Source of the DNA: Phoronis australis | Taxonomy: Eukaryota; Animalia; Phoronida | Direction: 5' to 3' | Assembly (NCBI GenBank): GCA_002633005.1 | Contig: NMRA01000511.1 | Coordinates: 66,147-130,146, forward strand | Length of the DNA stretch: 64,000 nucleotides | Shown: positions 947 through 34,782 of the stretch, one piece after another | How the letters are laid out: each line of letters begins with the position of its first letter | Numbering within the stretch: the stretch's first letter is position 1 | The notes under the pieces: model-generated | The model's input: the letters and a program-made list of their open reading frames with translations, nothing else | Told to the model about the DNA's origin: nothing | The model's database searches: none | Translations under genes and position numbers: made by a program

Positions 947-1149
947 CTAAAGCTTAAATTGATTAATTTGGCGATCGACATCCGCCTTTCCCTTGCACGT
1001 ATCCATGTGTCGCCTTACGAGACAAGGTCGCTTGAACCCCGTAAGGCAATAGGGGCAGTAAAACTCTTTCATCCCTAGGTGGCGCCGTATGTGCTCTTTA
1101 ACGTTCTGCGCTCGTTTAATAGACACCCCACATAGTTGACAGAGAAAGC
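947..1149 (-). CDS. Variable terminal zinc-finger cassette V1 (C2H2 + C2HC)
   Basis: Acceptor ttttctgtcatttgtag| then phase-1 frame (G)FLCQLCGVSIKRAQNVKEHIRRHLGMKEFYCPYCLTGFKRPCLVRRHMDTCKGKADVDRQINQFKL*; not in the ORF track; translated by hand. Confidence 0.85.
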
Positions 1150-2018
1150 CTACAAATGACAGAAAACTCTGATTGGAGAAGCGGTAAACGAGGAAAACTG
1201 AAACGCAAGCTGAAGTTAACCTCAGTGTAGGAAGTCAGTGTAAAGGGACAGACTTAAAGCATGGGACGTGTCAACATTTTAGTGAAACCCCAGACAAAAT
1301 TCTTGACTTAAACCCATACACTGAAGTAGCTTATCCCGAAATCACCAGGACTAAAAAGGAGATGACGCCACCGAACATTAGCGAAGCTTGTTTGCCAAGA
1401 AGCACGAGCGCTCGTTATGGCGAACAAAATGGGCAGACAAAGCCCACTGACATCGAAATAAGACAATTCGACACTATGTACCAAAGGACTTCCTCACTGC
1501 TGACAACTAATGGATAATAAAACCTGGCAAACATACTACAGGTAGACCGGACTAGAACTCAATCGGAGAACATGCGAATACATTGATAGAAAAAGTAGTC
1601 AGTTACTCAGTTGTAGTGCTCAGTTTACAACAGGGACGGATCTACTCCACTAAATCTAAGCTATAATTACTAAGCTAATTACAAAGGACAGTACGATTTA
1701 CACTTAATTATAACTTTAGGCACAGAACTAAGAGTATCAAAATAAAAAAGGTCTACAATAAACCACTCGATGTGTTCAAGCCTGTCGTCAAGGCAACGTC
1801 GGAGCGATATGCCACCTGAATCGTTTAGTCCACTAAGTCAAACAGGACCGAAATTCAAAATGCCCCAATTACAACTCCAGTTCTGAATACGACGATGATC
1901 GGTAGAGTTCACCAGAACAAACATACTACAGCCCCGTGAGAAACTTCAGCATGGATAAAATTTCTGTGGCGACGGCTTTCCTCAACAACCCTCAATGTGC
2001 ACACTGTTGGTCTTACAG

Positions 2019-2197
2019 CTAAACAGTGTGCTCCATTCCGTGGATCTTTTTGACGTGCTCGGCCAGGCGACAAGGTCTCCCAAACCCCTTGAGGCAGATT
2101 TTACAATAATGCTCCTTCAGCCCTAGGTGGCGCCGTATGTGCTCCTTAGCGTTCTGGACATATTTTAGCTGAGCCCCACAAAGTCTGCATAGGAAGC
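2019..2197 (-). CDS. Variable terminal zinc-finger cassette V2 (C2H2 + C2H2), paralogue of V1
   Basis: Acceptor ttttctccaattctag|, phase 1, (G)FLCRLCGAQLKYVQNAKEHIRRHLGLKEHYCKICLKGFGRPCRLAEHVKKIHGMEHTV*; not in the ORF track. Confidence 0.85.
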
Positions 2198-2288
2198 CTA
2201 GAATTGGAGAAAACTACTTCAGATTCGTGCCGCTTCTGTTGACTACACTCAGTATCAGAAATATTAACATGTTCTTCAATCAACCGAT

Positions 2289-2442
2289 GTGTAGCTGGGT
2301 CCACCCAACCCCAACCATAGTGTAGCTGGGTCCACCCAACCCCAACCATAGTGTAGCTGGGTCCACCCAACCCCAACCATAGCGTAGCTGGGTCCACCCA
2401 ACCCCAACCATAGCGTAGCTGGGTCCACCCAACCCCAACCAT
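2289..2442. repeat. 31-bp minisatellite, about 5 copies
   Basis: Unit gYgtagctgggtccacccaaccccaaccata repeated at 31-nt period. Confidence 0.95.
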
Positions 2443-3913
2443 CTCCACTACTCATTAATAAGATGATTTCTGCTAAATAAATGTACAAAAAAATGGTCTC
2501 CTAACATTTTTCACGTTGTACTTTTATTCACTAAAAACACAAAAAAAACACGTAAAGTGACCAAATTCAACTTGTATTCTTAACAAAAATGATTACAACT
2601 GCGCATTAAAACAGCCACGTTTATAAAAGACTGCAAGTCCTAACACCAAAAAAACACTTGTGATACAAACATCTTAACACACTAACAGCAACCAACACCA
2701 GCTGGCTTAAACCTAAAACCTACAAGTGTTCGCTCATTGTTACACGCCACTTGCGGCAGCGTCTCGTACTTGTAGAACGAATATGCCTTGACGAATAAAC
2801 GAACCTCATTGTAACAGCACACTATTCAGGTACGACTACTCTTCAATGATTACATTGACAGAGAGGGAGAAACGACCAACAGTCAGAATCTGGACAAGTT
2901 TAAACGTGTCAACTGAGAATTCTGTATCAATTGCAGCTCGACTAACACCCTACAAACTCCGTTATAGCTGACAGTTAAAGGTAAATATATTACAGCATAT
3001 ATTCAGGAATAACAGAAGAATTACTGTAAGAAGATTCTCTCAGGGAGAAATAACAGACTACTTTACTTCAAAAGGTTTACATGGTGTACATATGTTAACG
3101 AGACAGGCAAACTTCGTCACAGGCGCTAAGGAGCACAGAAAGGTTTCACGGCGATTCAGTTGTGATCTACGTTTGTATAATTCTAGATACGCACTTGTAT
3201 TATAATGTGTGTGTGTTATCAAATTTATGTGATGGGGGACGGAGACAAGATTATAAAATTACAAAGATGTATAATTTGATATCAGTTTACACTTTCTAAC
3301 ACCTCGTCTTCACCTAACACTATATCAATATAGAAACGACGCTGATTGCTTTGATAACCAACGGCCCGTAGACAGACCATTTGCATCAACTAACTGCGTA
3401 AATCCGGGCACATAATCCACTTATTTGCCAATAAGCAAAGAGTACAGTTTACAAGAAATAACTACCCATCTGTTTCGCCCAAGGTCCATAAATCCCACCT
3501 CACCTGAGCTAGTTACAATTTGAGACCAATATTAAAGGGACATTTCTTTCCGTCGACATATTTTCATGTTTGCCTCAAACTATGCGCTCTTTTGCATATT
3601 AAAAAATTCACAGTGACGGTGGCGCTTTTACGAATACTGTCAACATTTCATCAACTGACAACCCAACCTAACAGTAACTAACCATAACTTTCCTAAAGTT
3701 GAAAAGCCTAAAAACTATGACAAGAGTCGCATCCGTACAAACAATTGAACGATTGGGAACACGTTGCTTTCATATAACCACTGACATCGTGGAACGGCCA
3801 AAAAACAATCAAGGAATAATACTGTCACCCGGACACCACTACAGGTGCCAAGACGCGTAGGTGTGTCTCAGTTTATAACAGATCTACAATACCGAAGGCT
3901 ACATGGCAACTCC

Positions 3914-4080
3914 TCAGTGGTGATTCTTCATGTGCAGCGTCAGCTGACTCCTGCGCGGATATCCGGCCAGACAGATGGAGCAGCGGTAATTTTTGATCCC
4001 CAGGTGTTGAGCTTTGAAGTGCTCGCGCATGTTACCCTTCCGCCGGATGATTGTGCCACAGATTTTGCAGCAAAACTCTC
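3914..4080 (-). CDS. Variable terminal zinc-finger cassette V3 (C2H2 + C2H2)
   Basis: Acceptor ctttctttttag|, phase 1, (G)EFCCKICGTIIRRKGNMREHFKAQHLGIKNYRCSICLAGYPRRSQLTLHMKNHH*. Confidence 0.88.
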
Positions 4081-4233
4081 CTAAAAAGAAAGCGATAGAA
4101 CACCTCAGTCTTCCCAAGAAACCCTCGACTGGGCAAAAAACGCACTAAGCTGCCAAAGACACACGATCAAAATGGGTGTAAAATGGCGCGTTAATCCGAC
4201 TTGGTAGTTCAAATAAACGGGACGATTGAACTC

Positions 4234-4409
4234 TCAGCTCATGTCCCAGGCGTTATGCGAACTTCGGAGGTGAGCCTTGATCTGGTATCTCCGTTTACAT
4301 ATGTAAGGACAGAGCGGGCACTTGTGACCGATTCCCAAGTGGATTCGCACGTGACGGTGAGCGTCGCCGCGACGTTTTATCTCGGCTCCACACTCCTTAC
4401 ACATGTAGC
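4234..4409 (-). CDS. Variable terminal zinc-finger cassette V4 (C2H2 + C2H2)
   Basis: Acceptor tttctgttgcag|, phase 1, (G)YMCKECGAEIKRRGDAHRHVRIHLGIGHKCPLCPYICKRRYQIKAHLRSSHNAWDMS*; not in the ORF track. Confidence 0.88.
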
Positions 4410-5182
4410 CTGCAACAGAAATTGAAGCCTGCTTCAGCCACCGTGGTCGCCAAATTTACGAACAGGCTACTACCAAAAAACCAAAAGCAAAACAAAACAT
4501 CATAACTCTGTCATACCAAATGGTGATTGTAAAACTTGCCATACACTGGACTCACGCAGAAGATCGACTCGAGTCGACAGAAGGTAGTTACGGATGCATT
4601 TTAAGGACCCACAGCAAATACCATGTGAGACAAAAGACTCAGAAAGTCCCAATAATTAACACACGAGTAACACAAGCCTCGTTTTAAGCATAGCAACATA
4701 GCTAAGGTGTGTGGAGGTAATTACTGCAAGTACGTACGGATTTAACAGTGGTGACTTGATTGCTGCTCGCTAAGTTACCATAATACGATACCGAGTGCAC
4801 GCAAAACAAGTCTTCACAGATCCGGAACACTTCGGGCACTGTCGTTATCCCATGCTTTATTTCTGCGCAATAGCCTGGTCCCAGCATTAAGCGGGCAGTC
4901 GGCTTCGTGCAAGCCCAAAATAAAAGTTCCCAACCGAGTTGCCTTCCGTAGTTGGAAAGTCGCGTGAATTGTTTATCCTGATAGGTGTCGCATAACTGCT
5001 GTGCAATTACTACGAAAAATAACATCAGCGCAGGTACTGTAACACACGGAGTGAGATTATAGGTGTGTTGTCGTAACCCTGATGACATCAACATGGGATT
5101 AAATGTAAAGGAGAATTATTGTTATGAAGAACCAATCTGGGCACTCGTCGCCAAATTTTCTGGAGGGGCCAGTCTCCGTTGC

Positions 5183-5318
5183 TCACGGGCGGAGCACCAT
5201 AGGGGGCTGGGGGGCTATAGCCCCATTCTTTTCAATGCTGCGCCTCCCAAGGTACACCATAGGGGGGTGGAATGCGAGGGGAGCTATAGCCTCTTATTTC
5301 AGTGCCGCGCTGCCCATG
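5183..5318. repeat. Short dispersed repeat (GGGGCTATAGCCCC family)
   Basis: ggggctatagcccc and ccatagggg motifs shared, in inverted orientation, with about 29210-29278 and 31068-31198. Confidence 0.55.
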
Positions 5319-6089
5319 TAGCTACGTCACTCTACGTCATTTCTATGACCAATCATGAGCTAAAATCAATGTGCGCCACCTTCATCCAGTACAGCAAATA
5401 ATGTGACTCTCAATATGGAAAGCACCACCGAATGTGCAGGGATTAACGTGTGATAACTGGTTTGAACGAGAGTTCAGGCTGTGCAGGCCCAGACTGACAA
5501 TGTACGTTGTAGGCCGCATGTCTACAAAACAGGGCTTGGAATGACAAAGGATAAAATAGGAAAATTTCAAGGTCATGTATCGATCCAAAATAAATAGGCT
5601 TGTGTGACAAAAATATTTTTTGTGTTGTAAAATGTAACTGAAATTAATGTTTTGCACGAATAAAGTCAAAGTAATGAATAAAAGAAGAAATTGGAAATCA
5701 AATGAGAGGAAATTCAAAATCAAAAAAGAGGAAATCCGTATAAAAGAGGAACAAAACTATAAACGTGAACTCAGTAAAATAATACATTTTCTGAAAGTAA
5801 AAAGCACCTCCCCAGGCAAAAGTGGAGATTTTTGAAAACTAATGTTGGCAGCGGTTTGGAGCGCAGTGCATAATCCATACTATCTGAAAGTTTCATACGC
5901 ATCTGGGTCATGATGTTCCCGAGTTAGTCAAATTTGGACATCTTTCTAAGGTGCAACACAAGTACATCAGAAAACAGACTTTTACGACTACATAACCCCT
6001 CTGTCTGGTGATTAGCGTAATATAAGGAGTTTAGACGATAAATGGCAGAAGAGAAGGTAGACAGTGACCACCGTCTCTATCGGGCCAGA

Positions 6090-6356
6090 AGCTCTCCGGC
6101 GAATTATGGTCACACTGATTAGAAAATCAAAGTCATTTTGTTATAAATACCTTTTGCGCATAGAGGGACACCTTAGGAGACTGTTGATGTCCTTAATTCC
6201 TCCCAACTCAAATACTCCCGAAAAAGTTTGATAACAAGAGTATTTATTCGAGTTGGAATGAAGTAAAGATATCGACGGCCTCCTAAGGTCTCATTCTGTA
6301 CGCAAAAAGTATTTATAACAACGTGACTTTGATGTGAGGCATAATTCGCCAGCTGA
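6090..6356. mobile_element. Foldback / MITE-like palindromic element
   Basis: Left arm (aaagtcattttgttataaatac...ccttaggag) is the imperfect reverse complement of the right arm (ctcctaagg...gtatttataacaacgtgacttt); a single arm recurs at about 54160-54290. Confidence 0.7.
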
Positions 6357-8064
6357 GTCAGCTATAGACGTTGGTCACAGTCTAAAGGCAAGGCCACTAT
6401 TGCTGGTACGTCACGGCCTACATTCCTACCATTCCACGTGGGCACGCGCCAAATTTGAGAGGCGGTGGTTGGCCCGCAATATAAGGAGTTAAAGGCAGCG
6501 TCCAGGAAGAAGTGCTTAAAATCACCAAATTCAGACCAAGACACCAAACAACACCACCACCAATCGATCCGCTGTCACAGTAGCACACTCGCGATCATTA
6601 TCTGACATGTTAGTAATCTAATCTCGAGCATTTAATGTTCGATACATGAGTAGAATAGGGACAACCAATCACGTCTTAGTGTTTAGTAGCAAAAGTAGTC
6701 AGACGCTATGGCACATTTCACTTTCTTGAGCGGCACCAGAGCGCGGACATGGCACAAGCTGGTACAAGAAACTCGCGTGTTTATGGGCAAATCATTTTTT
6801 TGGTCTGGGTACGTTCATACGTCACACTAGTGTCCGAAGAGCTCCCAAACTTTCAGTTGAAGTGTTTTGCTCTATTTTCTCGTTTTTGAGATAGTTGATA
6901 TGCAGTGCTATGAAGGAAGATTTTAGATGCGGACAATGTAGTCACATGCCAAAACAAGGCGAATTGTAGTTTTAAGCACTTTAAGCGGACAGGGCACATC
7001 ATAGAACGAAAATACGATCGGTTAAGGCCTCCATTACGAGCCTACCAACATACTAGATGCACGCTTGTTCCGCACCTAACTGCACACAGGGCATAACACC
7101 CGGATGTAAAAGCTTGTATTCCCTTCAAGGGTTTATCCTTTTATTAAATACTCATGTAGGCAAATACAACTGACTATCAGTTCAATAATCTAGAAGAACC
7201 TCAAGACACAGAAACAACAGCTAACCAGTTACATTTCGCTCTCTTTAGCTGGGTAAAATCGAAAATTGAATAAAGCAGTTTACTCTCATAAATTCGGCCT
7301 CTCAGTTTTCCTTAACACCATAGAATTCAATCTACATTGCAAGTAATAGCCAAGAAACCATCTGCAACTCAAGAAAATGCTTAACAGTTGGCTGTGTGCC
7401 AATTCGGAAATAGCGCACGTTCGAAATGGGTGTGTGACTTGAATTTGTTAGGAGCACAGCTCCCTATCACAGCAAAGAATATCATGAGACTAGTTTATTT
7501 GCTTTAGCCCATTAACAGGAAAGAATACATAAACACCTTTAATTACAAACAGAACTTCTACATCTCCAGCACAAAATGTTCAAAGGAAACATCCAGTTTC
7601 AAACGTGTTAGCATCAGAAATACAAGTGAACAAACAGTAGCCACAACTGAAAAAAATAAAACTAAAATGCAATGCCCTAGACATAAAGCATACAGATGGC
7701 CCAATGACTTGTGAGTGAGTGGGAGAATCCATGATTGACAAAGAGTGCACCAGTTCAATTTATTTTAAAGTAGAAAACAAGTCTTTGCCAGCTACCGAAA
7801 TTACCATTTTCAAAAGTTCCTTCATAAAAATAAGTCATACATGTTGACACAAGCCAACGGTGTCCAAAGCAAGCACAGAGTTCTATGTACACTGCACAGT
7901 TGAAGCAACCAGAATTTTCCACAACATATTTGACAACAAAGAGACAACCACTGTCCTTCTGGCACCAACCAAACAAACTTTGTGTCCTTATCTCCAGCAA
8001 AATCTGACAAATGCTGAGTGTGATACATGTAGAATGTCCCAAAACAGACCAACAAGACAGGAGA

Positions 8065-8252
8065 TCATGGGCCAACGTAATGATGAACAGATTGCATGTG
8101 GCGCCGACAGGTCTCTGAACGTGTGAACGACTTGCCACAAATCCGGCAGGTGGCACGCATCGACATGATACCCAGATGCTTCTCGCGGAAGTGACGCTTC
8201 ATCGTATTGCGGTGCGTGGTGCAGGTCCCGCAGACGCCGCACATCAATTGGC
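8065..8252 (-). CDS. Variable terminal zinc-finger cassette V5 (C2H2 + C2H2)
   Basis: Acceptor ttccttcttttgcag|, phase 1, (G)QLMCGVCGTCTTHRNTMKRHFREKHLGIMSMRATCRICGKSFTRSETCRRHMQSVHHYVGP*. Confidence 0.88.
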
Positions 8253-8702
8253 CTGCAAAAGAAGGAACCGCGCATCACACACCGCACCGGTGAATTACAC
8301 AACGATCAGCAGATGGCGCTGTGGCACACAAACACACACACACACCCGCCAAATTCACCTACACTTATTTATGGACAGCTTAGTGTATATACCCAATACT
8401 TCCTGCTCTGGAAAACCAGAAAGATGAAAATTATCACCAAAAACAATTTAGGGAGCACTGACGGAATGGAAGACCACCCAGCAAGCACTTAGGTTGTGAA
8501 GGTAGACCAGTAGCACAGGACCGCCTTAAGAGTTAAAAACCATAAAGCATTGAAAATGGCCAACCACACAATTTTGTATCTGTACAATACTCAAACTGGA
8601 GCAAAACTGAGAACAGGTGAGATGAATAGAGAGCATTCCATATGCGAGACTGGACAGTACGTGCAGACGTGAGACCCACAGCAACTCAGCTGCAGTGGAT
8701 TA

Positions 8703-8884
8703 TCAGATCATCATCTGTAGATGACATCGCCACTCGTGTGTTTTTGCCACTTCCGCCCGCTTGAACACTTTCAGACAACATCGACACTGGTAGACTGGAC
8801 ACAGGTCCAGGTGTCGCTCCTTCATGTGACGCGCTACGTTTTTCCGGTGCTTAATGACAAGGTTGCACAAGCAACAGAGCACGC
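8703..8884 (-). CDS. Variable terminal zinc-finger cassette V6 (C2H2 + C2HC)
   Basis: Acceptor tcttcctttgtag|, phase 1, (G)VLCCLCNLVIKHRKNVARHMKERHLDLCPVYQCRCCLKVFKRAEVAKTHEWRCHLQMMI*. Confidence 0.87.
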
Positions 8885-9565
8885 CTACAAAGGAAGACAA
8901 AGGCAGGGTGAAGTGAGAGGCACCAAGCTTAGAGGCTAGTGGGGGCAGCAAGTGACAGAATCACTAGAAAAATGCCAACCTACACTCAGCTTCTCCTAAT
9001 GCTGATACAGAGTCGTATTGCAGCAAAACTACCAACATCCAGAGTGATACAGTGACCTGTTGCAGCAAAACTACCAACACACAGTGGCTGATAGGGGGGA
9101 AATTACACAGCAACAGATTTCCAACAGAGAAGAAAGTGGACTTAACCTACAGGAAAGTAAACTGTTGTACAAAAGAGATGCAAAGAGTACCTTTTACAAA
9201 TTCACCTGCTACAAAACACTTACAGCAAACAACAGCTTACAAAGTCTATGGACTTCTAATTGTTCTAAAATTCACAAAGCACTTCTGTACACTTCATAAT
9301 ATACAGGGTATCATGGCCCATACTCTAATGGTAGTAAATGAGAATGCCTACACACCACAAGCAGATCACTAATGTAACGTTCATACCACCATATGCCAAT
9401 GGCTTAGAGCTACAGAAACTGCTGTCATAACTCAAATTTTCGACTACACATTACATAAAAAACATAAATTGATGCACATCAGGGACATAAAAAACAGGAT
9501 TTACGCAACAGCGAAAGAAACAAGATAGGGACAGAAGGCTGGAATCAGTAAAGCACCCCATACTG

Positions 9566-9741
9566 TCAGAAGTGGATTGATTTGGCACACTTTGCAGCGT
9601 GTAATCGCATCCGGTCACCGCGGTTGAACGTGCGCCTGCAGAAGATGCAGCGGTAGGCCATGTCTGTGTGTTGCTGCTTCATGTGTGCCCTAAGATTACT
9701 CCGACTGCGAATGACCGAGTGGCACAGCATACAACGGAAGC
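9566..9741 (-). CDS. Variable terminal zinc-finger cassette V7a (C2H2 + C2HC)
   Basis: Acceptor cttgctgtgttgtag|, phase 1, (G)FRCMLCHSVIRSRSNLRAHMKQQHTDMAYRCIFCRRTFNRGDRMRLHAAKCAKSIHF*. Confidence 0.87.
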
Positions 9742-10421
9742 CTACAACACAGCAAGAACCATGTCTTAAACCAGCTGCAACGACCATGAGACAGAAGGTG
9801 TAAGCCAGCAAACCAACACGCTCAACACAAAAGACCAAACAACATTATTTGGTCCCGCTGGTAAAGCAAACTCAACGTTACAGCTTGTCTACATTGTTTT
9901 CTCAATCTTATAGGGTCTCATTCTGCCAACACTATCTGATGAAAGCAGAGCAAGCCCTTTCACAGATATTGAAGAGGGGACTCTTTGACAAGTCAATTAC
10001 ACACTTTTCTGTAGCCACAGGAGGACGTTCTGAGAACACAACAACATGCACTCATCTACAAACTTGTCATATCATGACCTGAATCACTATTCAGATGTAA
10101 TCTAACAAGACATCATTGAAGGATCACTGCACAGGTGCCCTAGTTGTTAATTAGGTCAACAAAGATCACAGCTGATCACCCAACAGTCCCTTAACAGTGG
10201 TTGAACAATAAACAGACTGAGAATGGATGTCTACATGTATAAAGCAAGTACAACAAGCAGTCCAGACCTGCCTACACCAAGGCTCAAACAACTAGAAGCA
10301 ACATAAACCATAGATGTTACTACGTATTTCAACTTTCTCTCTAGAGGGTGTCACAATTCGCACGAGAGTGAGAGACCGGTGGACGGGAAAAAACGTGGAA
10401 CCAGCCAAGAACTGCGTACCG

Positions 10422-10597
10422 TCAAAAGGGGATGAATGCAGAGCACTTGACGGAGTGTGCTCGCATGCGATCGGCTCGTGTGAACATGCGCTTGCAGTAG
10501 ATGCACCTGTAAGCTGTGTCTGTATGCTGTTGCTTCATATGAGTGCGGGTGTTGTTCCAACTGCGAATCACTGTGTTGCACAGCGTACAACGGAAGC
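10422..10597 (-). CDS. Variable terminal zinc-finger cassette V8a (C2H2 + C2HC), paralogue of V7
   Basis: Acceptor ttgatgtcttgcag|, phase 1, (G)FRCTLCNTVIRSWNNTRTHMKQQHTDTAYRCIYCKRMFTRADRMRAHSVKCSAFIPF*; this frame is not in the ORF track. Confidence 0.85.
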
Positions 10598-10787
10598 CTG
10601 CAAGACATCAACAAGCACGTCTTAGACCAGTAACAACGGCCATCGGACAGGACGTGCATGCAAGCAACTCTAAACAAGAAGACCAGATCCTTCACAATGC
10701 TGTCCTACAGTACATGTATGNTTTACGCAACAGTGAGAGAAACAAGAAAGGGACAGAAGGCCGGAATCAGCAAAGCACCCCATGCTG

Positions 10788-10963
10788 TCAGAAGTGGACT
10801 GATTTGGCACACTTTGCAGCGTGTAATCGCATCCGGTCACCACGGTTGAATGTGCGCCTGCAGAAGATGCAGCGGTAGGCCATGTCTGTGTGTTGCTGCT
10901 TCATGTGTGCCCTAAGATTACTCCGACTGCGAATGACTGAGTGGCACAGCATACAACGGAAGC
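10788..10963 (-). CDS. Cassette V7b (second copy or allele of V7; I>V near the C-terminus)
   Basis: Same acceptor and frame as 9566-9741, ends AKSVHF*. Confidence 0.8.
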
Positions 10964-11657
10964 CTACAACACAGCAAGAACCATGTCTTAGACCAGCTAC
11001 AACGGCCATGAGACAGAAGGCGTAAGCCAGCAAACCAACACGCTCAACACAAAAGACCAAACAACATTATTTCACAGTCCCGCTTGTTAAGCAAACTCAA
11101 CGTTACAGCTTGTCTAAATCATTTTCTCTTTCTTATAGGGTCTCATTCTGCCAACACTGACTGATGAAAGCCCAGCAAGCCCTTTCACAGTTATTGAAGA
11201 GGTGACTCTTTGAAAAGTCAATTACACACCATTCTGTAGCCACAGGAGTAAGTTCTGAGAACACAACAACCAGCACTCATCTACAAACTTGTCATATCAT
11301 GACCTGAATCGATGAATTTTTTCTATTCAGATGTAATCTAACAAGACATCATTGAAGAATCACTGCACAGTTGCCTTAGTTGTTAATTAGGTCACCAAAG
11401 GTCACAGCTGATCACCCAACAGTCCCTTAACAGTGGTTGAACAATAAACAGACTGAGAATGGATGTCTACATGTATAAAGCAAGTACAACAAGCAGTCCA
11501 GACCTGCCTACACCAAGGCTCAAACAACTAGAAGCAACATAAACCATAGATGTTACTACGTATTTCAACTTTCTCTCTAGAGGGTGTCACAATTCGCACG
11601 AGAGTGAGAGACCGGTGGACGGGAAAAAACGTGGAACCAGCGAAGAACTGCGTACCG

Positions 11658-11833
11658 TCAAAAGGGGATGAATGCAGAGCACTTGACGGAGTGTGCTCGC
11701 ATGCGATCGGCTCGTGTGAACATGCGCTTGCAGTAGATGCACCTGTAAGCTGTGTCTGTATGCTGTTGCTTCATATGAGTGCGGGTGTTGTTCCAACTGC
11801 GAATCACTGTGTTGCACAGCGTACAACGGAAGC
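11658..11833 (-). CDS. Cassette V8b (second copy or allele of V8)
   Basis: Same acceptor, length (176 nt) and translation as 10422-10597. Confidence 0.8.
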
Positions 11834-13376: not shown

Positions 13377-13693
13377 TCACTGGAAGTGCAACTCCGGATT
13401 ATGAGGACACTTTTTCTCATGAGTCTTGGCATTGTCCGGCCGGCTAAACACCTTGCGACAATGGCGGCACTGATACACATGTCGCACGTCCACTGGCCGT
13501 GCGTCGCAATACTTTTCATGACGCACGTGAGAGTCACGCCGGGTGAACCGTGCTGCGCAGTACCGGCACGACACGTTCCGACCACATACTCCCTCGTGCT
13601 TGGTGAGGCTGGCTGCATTGTGGAACTTATTGCCACAGTTTGGACATTGGAATCCAGTGCCTAGTAAGCCTCTGTCAGACATGTACGCCAACC
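13377..13693 (-). CDS. Variable terminal cassette V9 with three C2HC (Cx2Cx12Hx3C) fingers
   Basis: Acceptor cttatttctgttgtag|, phase 1, fingers CPNC..HEGVC, CRYC..HEKYC, CRHC..HEKKC. Confidence 0.88.
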
Positions 13694-16600
13694 CTACAAC
13701 AGAAATAAGCCGTCGTCACCGCGCACCGCCTCACCAGACCCGATGACTGCATCAGAACAGACACACATCACGAGAGTCTTGACAACCCCAACACACTTGA
13801 GTCAACTGGCAATCACTGGTAGGCATGCTCTTCTTCAGTAGTTTCTCAAATGAGGCGGTGACCATGAGAGTTTTAATCTTAGCAATGTTTCTATTTTGTT
13901 TCAATATACTTATGATCATAGGAAGAGATATTTAAGCATTTTGATGTAGTAAGACTACCTTGCTGATATTTAAAAGGCTACTCAACTATAACAGTGTTAG
14001 AATCATTATGCCTCAAGGCATGATATCCCAGGACATCACCCATTTGTAGCTATTTATGACCCAGTCATATTCAATATTTATGCATATAATTGTCAAGGTA
14101 TCACACACAGTTTGTTTATATCTCATGTTCACACACTCTATTGGGCTATTTACACGTTCGTTCTAAACCTCAATTACTTGGACCCTGTTTTGGAAGCCAA
14201 CAAGTCTATCATTGGTAACCCGTAAATTATGCTTGTAAACTACAGGCATACTTTTCACAAAGCGTTTTACGAGCGTAACCACACTTCCCAATGAGACATT
14301 TGGTTGTAGGTCACGTGAGCCCTAAAGAACTTGAGCGCTCGTAAAATTACGTTCAAAAAGACAACCACCAATTACAATAGCCTAACTCATAACTGTGAAA
14401 ATGGCCAAACTTGGCTACAGTGGGATCATCATATCTCAGATATGGCTGAATGGAGTCATGAAAAACTTTCAGACACCGTGCTTCGTGCACTGTTCTCAAA
14501 AACAATTAGGTATTGTTTTCAAAGTGTTTCACTTTTGCTTGAGATGCTATCAAAAATAAGGCTTTGATGACATTCCAGAAAAACATCGAAAGTTGAATAA
14601 AACGAAAACAAAGTCATAATTTAGAAAACTATCATGCTGACACTCTTGGTTTTAAGAGCATGATACAGCAGCGTAATTTATGTGCATAATTGACAGGTGA
14701 CATTTTCCTCCAAGTGGCCAATGATACAGTCAGAGCAACCCTTCTCTCTCCAGCCTGTTCCACACTATCCACTCAATACACTAAGTGTGTCATATACAGC
14801 CATAATGTGAAGTATGTTGCATCACATGCCTACCAATATAGCACATCAAGTGAAGTTTGTTGCATCGCACGTCAATCAGCTCAGGCATTGACACTTCAAC
14901 ACAAAGCAAAGGTATGAACTCTGTGATTAATGAGCCCTGTTCGGCTACGACTAGTAGGGGTTATACAAGGAACTGCTGTCAAAATACACCGCGACCAAGC
15001 AAAACTTGTTTCATAAGGGGCTCACAGTGCTGCCTCGGCTGAAAAGCAAGCGTTCTTGTGTCAAGGATGACAACGGGGAGACATAGCAATTTAGGGAGTA
15101 GCAAACAACAGATGTATTCCCACGGGCACTAGAGGTCTCCTCCTTCCACACTCAACAAGTTGAACATGACACAGAAAGTTTCAACACACAACACGTGCAA
15201 AACGTGCCACTTCTGTTTCACTGATGCCTTTGTGTTTGATGAATTACCCAATAATGTGAAGCAATTTGACTGTCAGGCACGGACACAGCACAATAGTACT
15301 GTGTGCGCCCGTCCTAGTGTGGTCAAAGAAGCTATAAACCTACGTTCCTGCAAAGATTTAGCTTTTAATTCCGACCAATTAAAACTATAAAATTGATCTC
15401 AACTTGTTTCTACCTCAGATGTGAAGTGCCTTGGTTATAATTGCTAAAGACCATGCTCAGCTGACTACTGACACGCCCCCTAGCGGAGCCTGATCTTAAA
15501 CAACTACAAGAAACCAACTTTGAGACCAATTTTATAATGGCAAATTGTGTTAATCAAAAGTTTCTGCAAATGAAGGCCAATTTGTAGCTGCATCAACGGA
15601 CTGTCACACACGAATCACTCAAGCCACAGTGTATATGTATGAGGTCAGTGGTCAGATTAACACAAACGGGTATTGATGGTACACTAATGGTACACTACCA
15701 GCATACAGGAGGCAAGGTGTGACCAAAGCTCATCAACAGTCCGTGACCACATATTTACACAACCTTGGTCTTGCATGATAAATTGTTAACGCACAGAGAG
15801 TGAATTCAAACTAAGAGAGGGGTTTACAATAAATGACTGCAGACAGACTGCGGGCCTAATTACAAATTCAAGTACAATAAACTTCGCACAAGTCAGAAAC
15901 AACCACATAAAGAGTTATTCTTCAAGTGAAATACAACTCAACCTATCAGAAGAGACTAGAACACACAAGAACAACGGAACTTTGTCCGTGTCAAGCAAAG
16001 ATATGACTCAGGCACCAGTGCTTTCTACAACCTGACTCGACTTGTAGTAATAACAAGTTTGGATTTTGCAGTAGTGAGTTCAGCTTTCCCGCCAGCATAT
16101 CCAAAAAAAAAGCGAGTAAGAACAAAATAGATTATCCCTTTCTTCAGACACATTTTAAAAAAAATTGGCGACCATTCAGTGTTCAATTATCCCGAGGCCT
16201 CACATACGTTGAAACGTCTCACAAGTGGACATGTCAATAGACTTTGTAATTTCCAATGAAAATGCGTTTTCTGTAGTGGAGAACACAGTGCTGAGTACAT
16301 CTACGCCAGCTTCATTGCATGCATGATATGTAATGAAGAATACAACTCAACCTGACATGTCAAGTGCTTCTTGTGTACAAGTGCGCATATCTGGAAATCA
16401 TCATTTGGTGATCAGTTTCACCAAGGGTCCATTCAGGAATAAAGTAATGGATACAGTGGCGTTCAAGAAAACAGTCAAAAGTACAAATTCCAAGTTTCAG
16501 TATGCGTTGACCTTGAAGACACCCTAGTTTACCCATTTTTAAAAACAAAGAATTTTATTCCCCAACATAAAATTCTGTTTCGTAAATTGTCAAATTCAGT

Positions 16601-17334
16601 TTTACTGTTATGAAATGGTACACGACAAAAAAGATTCGAGAATTCCCTAACTATTACCACTGAGAAGGGTCCCAAGTCAGTTTCTCCAATGCCATGTTGC
16701 ACGCCATGTATATTGTTTCTCAAAATTGGAAAAGAAAAAGCAGCAACAGAAACAAAGAGTAGCTAAATAGCTGGATTATGTAGAATTAGATAGATCGCAT
16801 TCATAGTTTTGGGTTATTGTTAGACAAACATATTAGAACTCTGGTACCCTTTATTGAAACATGGAAATTCCGCTTGAAATGTCAACTGAACCTCTTCAAA
16901 TTTTAAGATCATTTTCCAAACACGAAAAACAAGGTATAAAGTACTAAGAATGCACAGGCAGTAGACAAAATAATCACAATCTTTTTCTCAAAAAAAAAAA
17001 ATGAAATACTAAGCTGACAATGAAAAGTAAAATAGATAAATCAAATTCTTCAGTTTTATTTCTCAAAACATTGGTTCCAAAATGGCACTATCATGAAGTC
17101 AATGTCCATCTTTGAGGCCAAAGACTGTGGACTTGAAGTGAACACAGGGACAGTGGTATCAAGTTGACAACTACTCAAACCTAGCAGAGGTCTTTGTTTT
17201 TTATTTTAGTGGCAATACATTCAAAACTTATGTCAATATAGAAAGCATATGTGGTCTTTGGCAGAAAAATTGTCATCTCACGCCCGGAAAGTAGAATAGG
17301 TAACTATTTTCAAAAAAGGCATACCAACCCTTAA

Positions 17335-17404
17335 CACACACACACACACACACCTGAAGTTGTGACAGCAACACCAAAAAAAAAAAAAAAAAAAAAAAAA
17401 AAAN
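17335..17404. repeat. (CA)n microsatellite and poly(A) run ending at an N
   Basis: Direct reading. Confidence 0.9.
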
Positions 17405-18027
17405 GATTACTGAATGCAATGGTGCAAGCAGTTAATCTCTAAGGAAAAGGAACTTTGCACAGTTGATTCAGTAAGAGGTGCATATGCAAGCCTAACATGG
17501 CCATACAAGTAAGTTTGAAGACACTTGGCGAGTCAGGTCAAGTATAGAAACACCAGAACAGCACAGTATCCATGTTGACGCTACAGAAGACAGTGCCCCC
17601 TACCTGTTCACAATCAAACCAGGTTTCTGGGTGCACTATTGACTTGTAAACAAATACTGTTAAAAATAAGAAATTGTGGCTCAGGACCAGGGGTACTTAA
17701 TTGGCTGGGACTGCAAGGTTCCAGGTTTAGTTGGAACAGAGGACAACAACAGTGAGGTCATGAAGATGTCATCCACTGGGTCAGCTTCCAGATCAAGATT
17801 GAAACTGTCTTCATGAAGATTACTGCATTGTGAGAGTGTAATGTCAAGACAAAAGGACATGATATTAGGCTCATGACAAAAAATGGTACAATTGTTTCTA
17901 TGCACCAACCTTCCAACTTCTTTCCTGCACCTTTTCTCATATTAACCTGTCTGCAAGTGGTTGAGGAAGCGACATGCAGATACTGTACTGTTCTGCCATC
18001 TAGTGGTGAAAGCAAATGAGTGCTTAC

Positions 18028-18119
18028 CTGAATCCGTTTGAACAGTGTGTGTTTCCAAAAGTTCTGTAACTGAGTCGCGTGCACCGGGTGTACGTTTCGC
18101 TGACAATGGAGATGGGCCG
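18028..18119 (-). CDS. Constant exon 4 (last common exon, 92 nt) of the variable zinc-finger gene
   Basis: Acceptor acatttccttgcag|, phase 2 in, GPSPLSAKRTPGARDSVTELLETHTVQTDS, strong donor CAG|GTAAGC in phase 1, matching all cassettes. Confidence 0.8.
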
Positions 18120-18775
18120 CTGCAAGGAAATGTAAAGCTTAGCACCACTTGTACCAGAAGGCTGCCCTAAGCCCAACATCTGCAGCCGAAAGGATAGCAC
18201 TTTGTGGCGCTTAGGAAAACATTCACAATGATTTTCAGGGCATCAAAATAAAATTGAAAATTTAGACTTTGCCATCAAGTGCAAATTGAGTGAATCTCAC
18301 TGCATACTATTATTAACAATACAATTCACATGTGTAAATATTAGATTAAGTTTCTAAAATTAAGTCAGATTTATGTGATACCGTGATAAGGCCCAATTCG
18401 AATTCTTTGAGGCTAAATGGTTCACATGACATCACCCAACTGACGGGCAAAGTAATCTCCTTTAACAACAAGCCAAGTAAATGTACCTGGCGTGTGGGAG
18501 GAAGCAATACAAAACCCTTTTCTATGGCAACACACAACTGGGCTGTGTGTTGGTGTATCAACTAAATGGACGGAACTTCCCAGTGCAGAGACCACGGTGA
18601 AGAAACTTAAAGTCCCTGATAATTGTCCACTATGGGAGAATTGCGAGACTGCTTACGCGTGGAATACTCGGGCGATTAAGTACAGTATCACTGGTGCACT
18701 TTAAACCCACCATACCTAGATATAGTGCTAATGAATACCTAGGGCAAGGATATTAGTTAAAAAGTGCATAATTAC

Positions 18776-19511
18776 GTGGATGGTCCGGCGCGTGGAGTTG
18801 TGGGTGTGAGCATGGGTTTATGAACTGGTCTTGCAACTTGTGGTGACATCATGTGAGGAACAGGCATGCCTGGAACCAAGTGCGACACACTGGTCACAGG
18901 TTCCCCTGCTGATACGCTGGCGCCACCACCATACCTATCCAATGTACCGGCGGACTCACTGAGCCACAAACTACTGTCACCGGCCTCGCTCACTGCTGGC
19001 TTCACATCCTCTCCCTCAGAGTCTGAATCTAACATAACAATGTTTTGGTCCTGCTCCATTTTTATTGCCACTGCTGACTGTTCTGCAGAGCTGGCATCAG
19101 CCACAGCCACAGTCGCCACCGTTGTGTTCAAAGCAGAGTCAGATGCTGAGGTTGTTAGTGGACTAGATTCCATCTGTTGCGAAGTCGCTATGCTTGCCGA
19201 AGGTGTCGGCGGCAATGCAGGTGTCCTCACACTACGTGATATGGCATTTTTTAATATATTAGCCACGACACTCTTGGGTCGCGCTGGTCGGGCCCTATTA
19301 ACCCCGCCACGACCCCGTCTAGCGGCTGTCCCGTGATTACCACGCCTGTTGAACGAGAGTCCAGAGTAGCTCCTAGGCTGACTAGCACCAACAGTGGAAT
19401 TATGTTGAGAAAGAAACGCTGCACTTCCCAACTGCACATTGCCGCCCTCCTTGCTCCGTGGCCATTGTGACGGATCATTGCCTGCTGACCACGATGCTGA
19501 GTTTTCATCAC
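18776..19511 (-). CDS. Constant exon 3 (736 nt), low-complexity S/T/A/P linker with basic and acidic patches
   Basis: Longest ORF in the window; acceptor gttatcttcag| phase 1, donor AC|GTAATT phase 2, matching the 18119 exon. Confidence 0.82.
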
Positions 19512-20572
19512 CTGAAGATAACACCATGTTAGAACACAACAAATATACCCAACGCAGCAAACAACTGCAGCGGGGAATGTAAAAGCAGATGTCAACCAAA
19601 TGTGAATGAAATCAAACACAGCAGTGTAACATGGATGGGCCCAGAAAGTGTAAGTACTCCACAAACCTTCTAATCAATGCACACAAATAACCTCAAGCTC
19701 TTAACACATCGCATTAACAACATTAAACTTCACCCAATGAGTTTGGATCACTTGAGTGGAGTTTGATAACTATTGTAAGAATGTTTAAAAATCAATGCTT
19801 CAGCAGATCAGAATCTTGTGGAGTTGACAAAATCAACCTAACTAGAAATGGACCTCATGTCACGGGGCATTCTGCTATAGGGCAACAGTCGGATATGACG
19901 CGTCCACAATTTGAGAACCAATTTCCTCAACTGAATAATGGACTGGTTCTCAAAACACGGGCACTTCATATCCCGCTGTTACCTGTTGCATTGCTTTATT
20001 GCTGTCTTTGTGGGATGTTGAATCACTACTGTGAAGCAGGTGAAACTAGTAAGACTGTGTGTTCCTCAGCCTACAGGCAGTTTGGTAGGCTTGAAGAGCG
20101 CAAGTAAATGGCATGCCTTCATTTGAAACTGAGATATAATGATGCTGACCAGCCACTGAATTGTCTCTGTTCAGGTGAAAACTGTGATGGTGTTCACACT
20201 GTGTTACACATGTACAATTGACCTCATAATGTTCCTTGTCCATATGACTTCATTTCTGTTGCCAAACAAAAACATTGAAACTATCAGCGACACCAGAAAA
20301 GGCTTCAAAGTTAACTGGGGTTAGCCAAGCCTGGGTTAGCCAAGCCGACATTGCCCATTTGAAAATGGTGCATGTGCGCATTGCCTCCTCTTACTCGAGT
20401 TATTAGTTCATGTGCCAGTAATTTAAGATCGATGAGCTTGGCAATTTTCTAACCTCAAAGGGTTTCGCTCAAGAATTCAACACTGACAGCGTAACAGGGG
20501 CAAAATGCAACTAATGCACATGGCCTTCCAAGAAATGCATGTGAAAGCTGCAAATATCATCAAGGATAACCC

Positions 20573-20702
20573 CTTACTGTCTGTTAAGAGTCATGTGACC
20601 ATACGCACAAATGACTAACCACTTATTGTCTGTTAAAGAGCCATGTGACCATACACACATAAAGGCTAACCACTCACTGTCTGTTAGAATCATGTGACCA
20701 TA
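20573..20702. repeat. About 50-bp tandem repeat (2.5 copies) spanning the exon-2 splice donor
   Basis: catgtgacca at 20592, 20642 and 20691; each unit carries aacagaca followed by a donor-like hexamer on the minus strand. Confidence 0.8.
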
Positions 20703-20816
20703 TACTTTATACTCTGCCACCTTCAGGTCTAACCAGGCCACAAAATGAGATATAGTGTCGCCTTTGGCTTGTAGAATCATGGAGCAGAAGTTGACGCGAA
20801 GCCTGTCTGCATCCAT
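20678..20816 (-). CDS. Constant exon 2, coding part: start codon and 46-aa N-terminal domain (exon begins at 20862)
   Basis: Acceptor cttgtgctttgcag| at 20862; in-frame TGA just upstream of caagATGg (good Kozak context); MDADRLRVNFCSMILQAKGDTISHFVAWLDLKVAEYKVYGHMILTD; donor A|GTGAGT phase 1 matches the 19511 acceptor. Confidence 0.75.
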
Positions 20817-21391
20817 CTTGAATGTTCACCACACTGTTGAAGTCACCCAGGGGTAGCAGAGTCTGCAAAGCACAAGACTACACTTTGGTTTGAGTAACAC
20901 ATAACCTCGGATTCAATAACGTTATGCCAATACATAGCAGGCCTTGACAACAAGCAGCAGCTTGTATTCATAACCTGAAATTTGGAAATAAGAGCTGCGA
21001 TTCTGACAGACTCACATTAGTCGTATATTAGCCAAATATGCTACTTTCTGAAGGTGCAACACACACACTCGCTATGCCATGAAAATATCCTTCCTCATAT
21101 GACACACAGCGAAGTTGACTTAAGATCATACATCACAGCTATACTGCAAGAGTAACAAAAAAAAAACAAAAAAAAAACGTGGCGCGTGAGTACACATTTT
21201 CATGTGTTTTCTCTAAGGCAACACTATTCAAAAGCCCAGGAAAGTCTATGTTTTTATACATTGCAGGGTTTCCCGTGTGTAAACTTCTGGGAGGCCCGCC
21301 ACGCTCCTGTTTGGCCACACCACTCGTAAATCATACTCAAATTGACCGCCACACACCTAATCATGACGGGTAAACTTCACTGCCACGCAAA

Positions 21392-21535
21392 AATCGCTAG
21401 TAAAAATGATCGCTAGTGATCGCTAGTAAAAATGATCGCTAGTTAAAAATGATCGCTAGTAAAAATGATCGCGAGTAAAATGATCGAGAGTAAAATGAAT
21501 CGCAAGTAAAAAAATGATTGCTAGTAATAATGAAT
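21392..21535. repeat. 16-bp degenerate tandem repeat
   Basis: Unit aaaaatgatcgctagt, about 8 decaying copies. Confidence 0.9.
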
Positions 21536-23019
21536 AAGTACAAGTCACAAGGCACCTTTCGCTGTTTGTGGATCGAAAGGTAAAAATAATAATTTTACAT
21601 TGGGATCTTGAATTGTGCCCCAGTTAAACACAATCATCCAATCCCCAATCCCTTTTTGTACCTCGTTTCTGCCTGGTTATCTGACAATGCATATAAACTT
21701 AATACAGCCGGGGACCAGGCAACGACCTCGATACGAATTTTCTAACATGTGCCAGGGCTGGCTAATGAAGTAAGAAACAGTATGATTTCTGCTTCATTAA
21801 TTTTATTGTGTCCGAGTTTACAAAAGACATTATGAATTATACTGCAGGGCATGACATCCAACTGTTCAATCAACAATAGCCCCGCGCCAAAATGGCAATA
21901 TTGAAGGTATTCTCAAACTCGTCTGCATCATGTGGACTGGATTATACATCGTCTGCTACGCCGGCCAACGCCATTCCACTATCGTTGATTTATGTTTAGG
22001 TGTATTCCACAGTATTCGTTTTGTTACAGATGTGACATTCAGACACTTTAAATTCCAATATAAAATTAGTGAAACATCACAGTAGTAAGAAATTTTAAGT
22101 ACACATTACACACTTGATGGAAGCACTTCAGGTATCAAAAGTTTTTAATTCTGCACATTATAAGTGTACTAAAATTTACTTTTAATTAGTGTTACAGATG
22201 TGACCGAAAATGCCATGGTTAATATGCTAATGGTGGTTTGTCTAAAAACTCTGTTCTGTCTTTCATATTATGGAACTAGTTTCCCTATAGATAATTTAAC
22301 TATTTATTTGGCTATAACATGAAGAAAAGGTTTTTGAACTAAAATCAAGTCTTTGTATAATTATGAGCAATTTAAAAAAACCACGTGCGTTACAGATGTG
22401 ACTGTTACAGATGTGACTATTTGGCACTTGCACTATACAGAGTTGTAGAATGCAATTTTAATGAAAACAAAGCTAATAAAATCACATTAAGTGTATGTAA
22501 GGGTTGTGGGTAAACTATTTTAGTGTTTTTGATAGATGGAGTCTTAAAATTTACTTTGCTTGTTTGCGTGCACCTGTGTTTTGAGCTTCATTATGAAATT
22601 GTGGTCACTGAGAGAAAAATACAACAACTATACCAAGTAAGTCCTTAAACCACCTTGAAAAAGTTGAGTTTAGTAACAGGAGTAAATCAGGTACAACTAA
22701 CTAAGACCAACATAAACACTCATGCAGGTATAATTACGAAGTGACGTGAAATGCTGACATCACGTACTGAGCTAAAATCTTAGGATTAAATTTTGTTTAG
22801 GCTGCGACAGTTGGTTGTCCTTGTAAATTATTCTGAGCAATGATTGATATGCAGAACAGGCAGTTTTTTGATTATTTGGTCCAAGTCGATCCATGTGGTG
22901 TCGTCTTGTGCTGGTAAACTGAACGCAGTCTTGTTACTATCTGTTTTTCTCATGACAGTGACTTTGATACCATCTCTTTCAACCATCATGATCTATGCAA
23001 CGTTTGAGCTCCTAGGACA

Positions 23020-23862
23020 CAATTGTTCCATCAAAATTGGAATCCTAGCGTGAAACAAATATCCCGGAGTCTAAACAGCTAACCAGCCCGAAAAACAAAC
23101 CCGGCTTTTAAAACGCGAACCCCAGTGATCAAATAGGGAACCTTGACAATTTTTCAAATTTTCTAAGACAACGTCAATAGCCTCAAACTGAGCATTTTCT
23201 AGTACTTTCCATTTGTTTTCTGAATTTGTTAAAGATTAGCATTAATAAAACGTAACTTACGTTATGTTGAATTGTTGCTTAAACTCGTGCAATTTGTGGT
23301 CACCAACTCTTCTGTTCTTGTCTTCAAGAAGAGTTACTTCAACTTCTCAATGATCACTAAATTTGGAATCGGAATTTCTGAACTCCACGCATTCACATGC
23401 TTTTTTGGTAGATAATCCCTCAGAATTCTGTGACCATTGTGGCATCCACCACTCAAGCACATGCCATTTTTCATTGTGCACCCTGTCTAGTACACTGTAC
23501 ACATCCTCGATTTAAGAATGAACACTTTTTGCTACAGATCAGTCCTAAGTTGTTTAAAACAACATATCACATCAACTATTTAAAATAGGAAGATTTATTG
23601 TTTCATCAAAATGTGAAATTGATACAAGTCGTATGAACACAGAGTGCTAATAAAGGCACTATTTTCTTGCGATAAACAATGTTGGAAAGCAAGTACAGGA
23701 GTGGTGTTTCGGTCCGGGGTGTCCTGTCTGATCCCCAGGGTTTCTGTTTTAGAGGTCGGGGTTTGTGTTTTTCGGGCTGGTAAGCTGTTTTGAAGGTGCG
23801 GTAGTACGTTTTTGACTCTGGCCTATCTGCTTAACACCGTAATACCAGTTTTGATGGAACAT
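23020..23862. mobile_element. Decayed TIR DNA-transposon-like element in intron 1
   Basis: 23024-23125 (tgttccatcaaaa...aaacagctaaccagcccgaaaaac) is the imperfect reverse complement of 23730-23862. Confidence 0.55.
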
Positions 23863-24845
23863 CTTGCTTGAAACGAATACCTCGGAACTCANTGCCTTGC
23901 CTAGACGTCATCTTGAGTCATTGAGCATTCAGTGCCATAAGTTGATGTCAACAGTTAAACTAATGACCTAGTTTGTACTTGAATGCCACTGGTTGATTTA
24001 GAAATGAGACTGAACCCCGAGATCTTAATGTGGAGGATGCAGATGTCGAACTCGCCAATTTCACTCATACCTTCCACCCCTACATATTTCTAGATCACGT
24101 AATTCCCACTCTCATACCTTTGAGAGATCATACATTCGCACTGCGTACTATGCTAACTCTTTCTTCCCATCTACCATTCACAATTCATCATCTCGTCAGA
24201 AACAATAGAGATGTTCTCAGGTCACATCTTGAGCATCAATCTTACACAGTAAACAATAAAACCTGTTTTTATCCAGGCTCTGTTGTTATTTCCACAGTCA
24301 TGCACAGTTCAGTTTATTATTAACATGCGCCAAAATGTAAGGATCGATATTACAATTGTAAATGGAAAGAAGAAGCAAATTCTTGTGCAGAAAACGTGAA
24401 ACGAACAGAGGATGATCAATTTAAACTCCAGGTATGTTTTTGAACTATTGTGAACGTCACACATTTCACAAAATTTCTTTGACAACCGCCGCTTGCAAAA
24501 ACTGCAAGCAAAGCCAGCACTTTTGCAATGTTGTGTGATTACATAACCTCGGTAATTACAATAGTGTACTGCTTATGCAAGTACAAAATAATGTCAAAAG
24601 GTGTCGAATATGGGTACATTAAAGTATTCATGCTGTTTCTGGCACACTGTTTTTCACATTTTATTCTATCAATAATGAAGTCCCAGGCCAGGGTTAGTGG
24701 CCTCGCCCTCGCTCGCCTGTGCTTTGTTTGCCAAGGTTTTCTCGCAAGAATGAATTTTTATTTTCCGCTACGATACAAATATCCACATAGTTTGTACTTT
24801 AGATTAGGCACTTAGAATGACATTTTCAGAAAATAGTTTACTCAC

Positions 24846-24920
24846 CTGCGAAGAATGAAAGGGCACGAAACGTGGTTAACATTCACCTTCTTGAAACATA
24901 AAGAATAAAATGGCGGCCCT
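24846..24920 (-). promoter_or_regulatory. Probable non-coding exon 1 / TSS region of the variable zinc-finger gene
   Basis: Consensus donor CAG|GTGAGT at 24846/24845; YY1-type motif GCCGCCATTTT at 24907-24917, commonly found just downstream of a TSS; 5' end approximate. Confidence 0.55.
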
Positions 24921-34469: not shown

Positions 34470-34691
34470 CTAAAAATCCTGACCGTGCATTGCGAATACT
34501 AGGCACATACATGTATGCATGTAAAATTGAATCGAGCAGCGTTTTTCTAAAATAAACCAAGGAATTGTTAGACGCTACCTGTTCAATTTGCTTAAAAATG
34601 ACCTGGTTTATTGTATTGTTCTTAGGTCAACATTTATAAGAAATGACAATATGATAATCATATGATAATTATAAGACTGTCAAACAGTTAC

Positions 34692-34782
34692 CAGATTCCT
34701 GAAGCGTGAGCACATCCGCTAATTGCGTCTTAATGTCGCATAATTTTCCTTCATACCCGTCGGGGCACCAACATGAAAAACT
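34692..34782 (-). CDS. EGF-like domain second-half exon
   Basis: ttctcactgcag|SFSCWCPDGYEGKLCDIKTQLADVLTLQES G|gtaact; phase 0 in matches the 36097 donor. Confidence 0.75.

Follow-up and report, generated by a model that had tools for sequence, protein, structure and literature searches.

The window analysed here is a 64,000-nucleotide (nt) stretch of Phoronis australis DNA (contig NMRA01000511.1, positions 66,147-130,146), and on its minus strand lies a locus in which one splice donor is joined to several zinc-finger last exons, six of which are shown by RNA while nine are likely. Finger cassettes were located by a six-frame scan of the window. The RNA consisted of one contig set and three raw runs (X2, X3 and X4) from a single study, aligned to positions 900-20899; about 18-19% of each raw run was read, junction counts are quoted in the order X2/X3/X4 and statements on splice joints rest on the 15 of 19 joints listed. 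The features of the locus are given below in the direction of transcription, where junction reads are summed over the three runs and cassettes without a read count (2, 7 and 8) are predicted from sequence only.

24846..24920, minus: non-coding first exon, donor at 24846; its 5' end is an estimate made in an earlier note on this DNA
20678..20862, minus: constant exon with a 46-nt leader, ATG at 20816, a conserved N-terminal domain of 46 amino acids (aa) and a phase-1 donor
18776..19511, minus: constant exon encoding a linker of low complexity (S/A/P/G) that includes a patch rich in Arg and Gly, RNA joints on both sides
18028..18119, minus: last constant exon, common phase-1 donor CAG/GTAAGC at 18028
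13377..13693, minus: cassette 1, three C2HC fingers, 427-aa isoform, 8 junction reads
11658..11833, minus: cassette 2, C2H2 and C2HC
10422..10963, minus: cassettes 3 (10788-10963) and 2 (10422-10597) repeated on either side of the N at 10721, probably a false duplication
9566..9741, minus: cassette 3, C2H2 and C2HC, paralog of cassette 2 (73% nt identity), 17 junction reads
8703..8884, minus: cassette 4, C2H2 and C2HC, 19 junction reads
8065..8252, minus: cassette 5, two C2H2, 16 junction reads
7140..7764, minus: AATAAA signals at 7764, 7499 and 7145, putative common 3' end of cassettes 1-5
4234..4409, minus: cassette 6, two C2H2, 8 junction reads
3914..4080, minus: cassette 7, two C2H2, next AATAAA at 2528
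2019..2197, minus: cassette 8, two C2H2, paralog of cassette 9 (73% nt identity)
947..1149, minus: cassette 9, C2H2 and C2HC, 13 junction reads, next AATAAA at 681

Constant exons and the cassette array

The three coding exons (20816-20678, 19511-18776 and 18119-18028) were found to chain in phase into an open frame of 322 codons plus one base, which completes a junction glycine with every cassette, and the two joints between them are covered by 48/59/45 and 33/45/31 reads. This is the chain that the earlier note had proposed. A mis-join at the N at 17404, which that note had named as a possible flaw of its model, was not borne out as spliced reads cross this position. All first mates were observed on the plus strand and the joints read CT..AC in the three RNA samples; if the library was prepared in the usual stranded way, the transcripts derive from the minus strand. 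Six of the nine variants displayed in the linker exon 18776..19511 are synonymous. At 20870, the loose ends of 27 reads in X2 and 45 in X3 match 24854-24883 in the first exon, and the spliced leader contains an in-frame stop before the ATG, so that no hidden coding extension runs upstream through the observed 5' exon. The same leader (24846-24920 plus 20817-20862) carries two upstream ATGs which may dampen translation.

A total of eleven minus-strand finger cassettes were found, all at the positions first claimed for them, with ends at 13377, 11658, 10788, 10422, 9566, 8703, 8065, 4234, 3914, 2019 and 947. Their acceptors (13693, 11833, 10963, 10597, 9741, 8884, 8252, 4409, 4080, 2197 and 1149) are all phase-1 YAG/G sites. 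With the acceptor rule set as YAG/G and a cut-off of 13 pyrimidines in 20, chosen after the real sites had been seen, such a site precedes 70 of the 17,937 positions of the region (0.4%, real sites included). The finger pairs and triples span 947-13693, and each cassette has an open frame of 54-104 codons followed by a stop, which gives predicted isoforms of 377-427 aa. As the earlier note had it, the first finger lies close to the acceptor in ten cassettes: the first cysteine codon is 8-11 nt away in 10 of the 11 and 47 nt away in the cassette at 13693. The cysteine and histidine ligands are intact in all nine distinct cassettes (the cassette at 8884 has the ligand pattern with weak Pfam scores), and the residues at helix positions -1, 2, 3 and 6, which are the recognition positions of a finger, differ among all nine. 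Just upstream of the cassette at 2197, positions 2281-2442 form a short tandem repeat whose units are about 31 nt long.

The earlier note listed eleven cassettes, nine of them distinct, and had not recognised two of the eleven as a probable assembly duplicate. Positions 10722-11956 and 9500-10720 are 95.5% identical, 1.2-kb copies which abut exactly at the single N at 10721. The coding part of the cassette at 10597 is identical to that at 11833, and the cassette at 10963 differs from that at 9741 by four codons. RNA depth is 0.23/0.14/0 on 10905-11571, which in X2 and X3 is less than the intron shows, whereas the corresponding stretch 9571-10237 has 8.3/7.7/4.5. Because the copies abut at the N and one of them has near-zero depth, the cassettes at 10963 and 10597 are probably a second haplotype assembled in tandem, which would leave nine real cassettes, though they may instead be a private duplication in the sequenced individual. 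Other single Ns at 17404, 23892 and 41985 may be similar contig joins.

Splicing to alternative last exons

Junction reads link the donor at 18028 to the acceptors at 13693 (3/2/3 reads), 9741 (6/4/7), 8884 (6/10/3), 8252 (8/4/4), 4409 (4/1/3) and 1149 (6/6/1). All six joints were seen in each of the three samples, with 81 reads in total and 8-19 per cassette, and no cassette-to-cassette joint is found among those listed. The design of constant exons followed by variable 3' exons is thus upheld by RNA, and the case that the earlier note had named as refuting it, with no spliced reads from 18028 to more than one cassette, did not arise. The earlier note had predicted at least nine isoforms of about 380-430 aa; six are now seen by junction reads, within a range of 377-427 aa, and the other three of the nine are read from the DNA.

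The 3' ends appear to be organised in blocks. AATAAA or ATTAAA follows only the cassettes at 8252, 4080 and 1149. RNA depth in X2 and X3 is about 5 at 13.6-14.2 kb, rises to 23-30 at 7570-8236, drops to 1.7 at 6236-6902 and is then 12-14 at 2901-3567. Because the placement of the AATAAA signals fits this stepwise depth, the data suggest three blocks (cassettes 1-5, 6-7 and 8-9), each with a common poly(A) site. Dispersed repeats between the cassette blocks (4900-6900) draw reads from both strands, and an element with 89-nt inverted arms lies at 6126-6333 with a relative near 54161-54281.

Several observations weigh against a single array of nine used cassettes. Joints to 11833/10597, 10963, 4080 and 2197 are not among the 15 of 19 joints listed. 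Together the six alternative joints account for 81 reads, while the constant joint upstream of them has 152, which leaves about half of the transcripts unaccounted for; the remainder may lie in other cassettes, in short overhangs or in cassettes beyond the window. The depth staircase could partly be a 3' bias of poly(A) libraries, and the RNA comes from three samples of one study together with one contig set. With these points weighed, we consider it highly probable that the locus is one gene with a common front domain, a common donor at 18028 and alternative zinc-finger last exons, and its products are likely to be transcription factors. In such a gene, the 3' splice sites would compete on one long cis transcript and the chosen acceptor would set the protein, with the downstream cassettes of a block carried along as untranslated 3' sequence. 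Each isoform is predicted to read a different DNA site because the residues at positions -1, 2, 3 and 6 differ among the nine cassettes.

The same products could also arise partly or wholly by trans-splicing, with each block as a transcription unit of its own as in mod(mdg4). The cassettes here are likewise grouped into three blocks and short junction reads cannot separate cis from trans; in addition, the accessible text of one source describes the variable exons of mod(mdg4) as clustered with independent promoters and lola as mixing cis- and trans-splicing (PMC13490949). However, every cassette lies 3' of the donor and on the same strand, and a same-strand depth of 1-5 was observed through the intron at 14240-17574 in X2 and X3 (0-0.8 in X4), as read-through pre-mRNA would give. 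We therefore regard trans-splicing as improbable and retain competition on one cis transcript.

Elsewhere in the window, exons of a major facilitator superfamily (MFS) transporter are found at 53287-63482 on the plus strand, where one exon matches MFS_1 at E 0.004; by eye, we take these exons to be SLC22-like. On the minus strand at 34669-46647, Cys-rich EGF-like, FN3-like and Ser/Thr-rich pieces seen by eye may form one surface-protein gene, with no Pfam match at E ≤ 0.01. A fragment at 50692-51111 on the plus strand has no Pfam match, and by eye it presumably resembles the GIY-YIG endonuclease of a retroelement.

The front domain and the linker

Exon 1 has no match in Pfam. A HMMER search with this exon gave 29 representatives, of which 22 had a single match at the N-terminus. 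A profile built from 16 sequences then scored 110 proteins as matches among 7,993 candidates; 81 of these are named and 29 unnamed, and every one of the 81 named proteins is from a mollusc (bivalves, abalones or cephalopods). Oysters and several annotated snails did not appear among the matches of this capped search. The start of the domain falls inside the first 65 residues for 244 of the 245 proteins collected. Ten columns of the domain (about 45 aa) are invariant with the window row included, namely F10, F25, W28-L-D30, K32, E35, K37, G40 and M42, and the matches are reciprocal. The 46-aa domain was predicted by AlphaFold2 to be a two-helix hairpin (helices 3-16 and 19-39) with a mean predicted local distance difference test (pLDDT) score of 90.8, and fold searches with this model gave generic matches only. 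Judged from these alignments, the front domain appears to be a conserved family without a name, known here only from molluscs besides the window copy. The Phoronis australis copy shares no more than 55% identity with any of 39 chosen relatives and forms a long branch without a clear place in the family; on sequence alone, its source would likely be a mollusc with no close annotated relative or a nearby lophotrochozoan. What the earlier note overlooked is that the N-terminus is a domain conserved in molluscs, and that other proteins of this family have similar arrays built on other domains.

As that note had asserted, no recognisable BTB domain was found at the N-terminus: Pfam gave no BTB on the constant exons, PDB sequence searches found none, and the stop in the leader excludes an upstream extension. 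One could still suppose that the hairpin is a reduced BTB or another known effector, so that the locus would descend from an old BTB-ZF or BTB-BEN design with no independent invention. The partner domains found with the hairpin (C2H2/C2HC, Psq and BEN-like) do accompany BTB in flies and in NACC1. Against this, the domain has only 46 aa, none of 16 aligned domain members matches BTB at E ≤ 1, no PDB sequence matches it at E ≤ 10 and the FxLRWN motif is absent from the 322-aa constant region. Tramtrack-type BTB was also not found in Mollusca or Annelida, according to the accessible part of the source (PMC11426971). A BTB origin of the hairpin is therefore very improbable. KRAB, SCAN and ZAD likewise gave no Pfam match at E ≤ 1 on the constant exons or the 16 domain members. 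By analogy with BTB in lola, the hairpin would take over the role of self-association or of docking cofactors, and isoforms could then combine; both this self-association and the DNA binding of the fingers are properties which we infer.

The linker carries an IKME sequence, of the psi-K-x-E type, at residue 196 (19054..19065, minus strand), followed by an acidic stretch. Of 40 non-redundant relatives, 36 were observed to have a psi-K-x-E motif in their linker against 11.4 expected from shuffles, and the narrower [IV]K[ILM]E in 23 of the 40 against 1.1 expected. We take psi-K-x-E to be the SUMO consensus, and given its conservation the linker motif is likely to be sumoylated, which would add SUMO-linked regulation to the isoforms.

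Relatives and known systems

Proteins of the family end in C2H2 fingers, in two or three classes of helical domain, in Psq or in DUF3504. The earlier note expected annotation pipelines to miss such loci. This does not hold for the relatives, as RefSeq lists isoforms X1-X16 of 'uncharacterized' proteins. Five bivalve RefSeq loci (Mizuhopecten LOC110460779, Pecten LOC117322409 and Mytilus LOC127730005, LOC134708014 and LOC143063003) resemble the Phoronis australis locus in having the same N-terminal domain, a long low-complexity linker and 13-16 annotated isoforms which part at a single C-terminal point, but they differ from it in swapping only the last 25-70 aa of a helical domain (BEN-like in mussel) and not whole finger pairs. 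As an example, all 15 listed isoforms of Mizuhopecten LOC110460779 have distinct tails after 492 common aa, and so do all 15 of Pecten LOC117322409 after 485 aa (16 cluster members each). The Mytilus trossulus locus has 13 distinct tails in 13 isoforms after 556 aa, in a cluster from which one unnamed record and three M. galloprovincialis models that are fusions were excluded, and its counterpart in M. californianus has 13 in 13 after 555 aa. Reciprocal best tail pairs were found for 14 of 15 tails between the scallops and for 12 of 13 between the mussels, often with 100% identity over the helix; within-locus tail identity averages 34% in Mizuhopecten.

Other members vary this arrangement. Mytilus californianus LOC127730005 (P0108/P0100) is two-tiered, with one of two unrelated helical cores after 419 aa and then several tails for each core, while LOC127729511 of the same species (P0032/P0033) has a third helical class with two alternative last helices. 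Two alternative finger triples occur in octopus and finger or Psq ends in a Potamilus gene model. In Solemya velum, which has ten family members among the profile matches, the front domain of P0137 is joined to DUF3504/QRICH1.

The scallop model (mean pLDDT 46, about 59-88 in the domain) places the break, which follows W492, directly before the final helix 493-514, and the scallop 'GPNPW' domain was predicted to be a beta hairpin with four helices. For mussel P0108 the only PDB matches were NACC1 BEN structures (E 0.21 and 0.27), in a whole-domain alignment which places the variable tail on alpha5. The alpha5 helix of BEN is the base-contacting helix, as described in the accessible text of two sources (PMC11472053, PMC8887127). 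UniRef labels also bear on BEN for the mussel 'IIEAIL' relatives. Read from these sequences, the bivalve loci are likely to swap only the last-helix region of a C-terminal domain, which would be its DNA-reading helix. Several results pull the other way. The 12 of 30 mussel isoforms that match Pfam BEN at E ≤ 0.5 are all under the cut-off (best 0.0091), and a profile search with the mussel sequences lost the NACC1 match. For the scallop-type domain, neither Pfam nor PDB gave a sequence match, and it could not be aligned with the mussel type (hhalign probability 0.2%). Furthermore, the exon structure of the relatives was deduced from RefSeq protein isoform models and not from genomic DNA. Fold searches with the full-length scallop model were uninformative.

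The cassettes could also be a by-product of tandem duplication of a last exon. Most isoforms would then be neutral or functionally redundant, or else the targets of the fingers would be RNA or protein instead of distinct DNA sites. This would fit the two recent paralog pairs at 73% identity, and C2HC fingers can bind non-DNA partners according to the accessible part of one source (PMC1947980); moreover, the searches gave no ortholog of the finger array from which its conservation could be seen. On the other hand, all nine frames and their metal ligands are intact, and the differences between cassettes 2 and 3 (11/14/25 by codon position) are concentrated at the third position. Six cassettes are used at comparable levels (8-19 reads), and the bivalve tails are kept one-to-one between species, often at 100% over the helix. 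We consider a mere by-product unlikely, and isoforms with different DNA targets remain the reading preferred here.

Among known systems, lola has constant N-terminal exons and 20 last exons, of which 17 have fingers, mostly exons with C2H2 and C2HC types (accessible text of PMC1947980, PMC10551640 and PMC11426971). The Phoronis australis locus is like lola, and also like broad, fruitless and tramtrack, in joining constant exons to alternative last exons, with six such joints in RNA, and like the Tramtrack group of BTB-ZF proteins in that each last exon encodes between one and three C2H2/C2HC fingers. Unlike lola, it has a 46-aa hairpin domain instead of BTB. According to the portions available, the last exons of lola have separate 3' untranslated regions (PMC10551640) and its products self-associate via BTB (PMC1947980). 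The blocks in this locus are likely to share their 3' ends instead of having separate ones, with AATAAA after cassettes 5, 7 and 9. In mod(mdg4), so far as the sources are accessible, one constant core is combined with 3' variable exons in clusters that have independent promoters (PMC13490949), and the ends are mostly FLYWCH, with BTB in front (PMC11426971). Trans-splicing is obligatory in mod(mdg4). The locus shares with it the constant core and the clustered array of 3' variable exons but has C2H2/C2HC ends, is likely cis-spliced and lacks BTB. No FLYWCH appears in the Pfam rows displayed for the nine scanned cassettes, which are all Cys/His finger pairs or triples.

NACC1 and NACC2 also combine an N-terminal interaction domain with a C-terminal BEN whose alpha5 reads bases (PMC11472053), and the mussel relatives align weakly over this whole domain. 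The difference is that NACC1 and NACC2 have BTB where the hairpin is found here, and the accessible text of that source mentions no array of alternative alpha5 exons (PMC11472053). The locus thus works like lola and mod(mdg4) but is not a member of their group, as the BTB that defines it is lacking. An independent origin of the constant-plus-variable design is likely.

On balance, though only just, we favour the view that molluscs possess their own undescribed 'cassette' family of transcription factors, where the hairpin stands in for BTB and alternative last exons were recruited as arrays more than once, each time onto unrelated DNA-binding modules, as whole finger pairs in this locus and as single recognition helices in mussels and scallops. 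No description of the domain or of such arrays in molluscs was found in the literature searched, which consisted mostly of papers free of subscription, taken without supplements.

In the accessible part of one source, the lola/mod(mdg4) design is tied to the arthropod-specific Tramtrack BTB proteins (PMC11426971). An example with RNA support that is built on an unrelated front domain indicates that this design can arise again, and what drives it can be tested by comparison. The bivalve relatives show conserved arrays which swap only the last helix of a domain, an arrangement not seen for fly genes in the literature as far as it was accessible. Relatives occur under 'uncharacterized' names in cephalopods and in mussels and scallops that are farmed, where possible functions of the isoforms in development or the nervous system are directly testable. 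If the swapped helices do read DNA, exchanging one of 13-16 conserved helices on a DNA-binding fold that stays constant would amount to a switch of specificity which the literature searched does not describe, and it would provide a natural library for the helix-to-DNA code.

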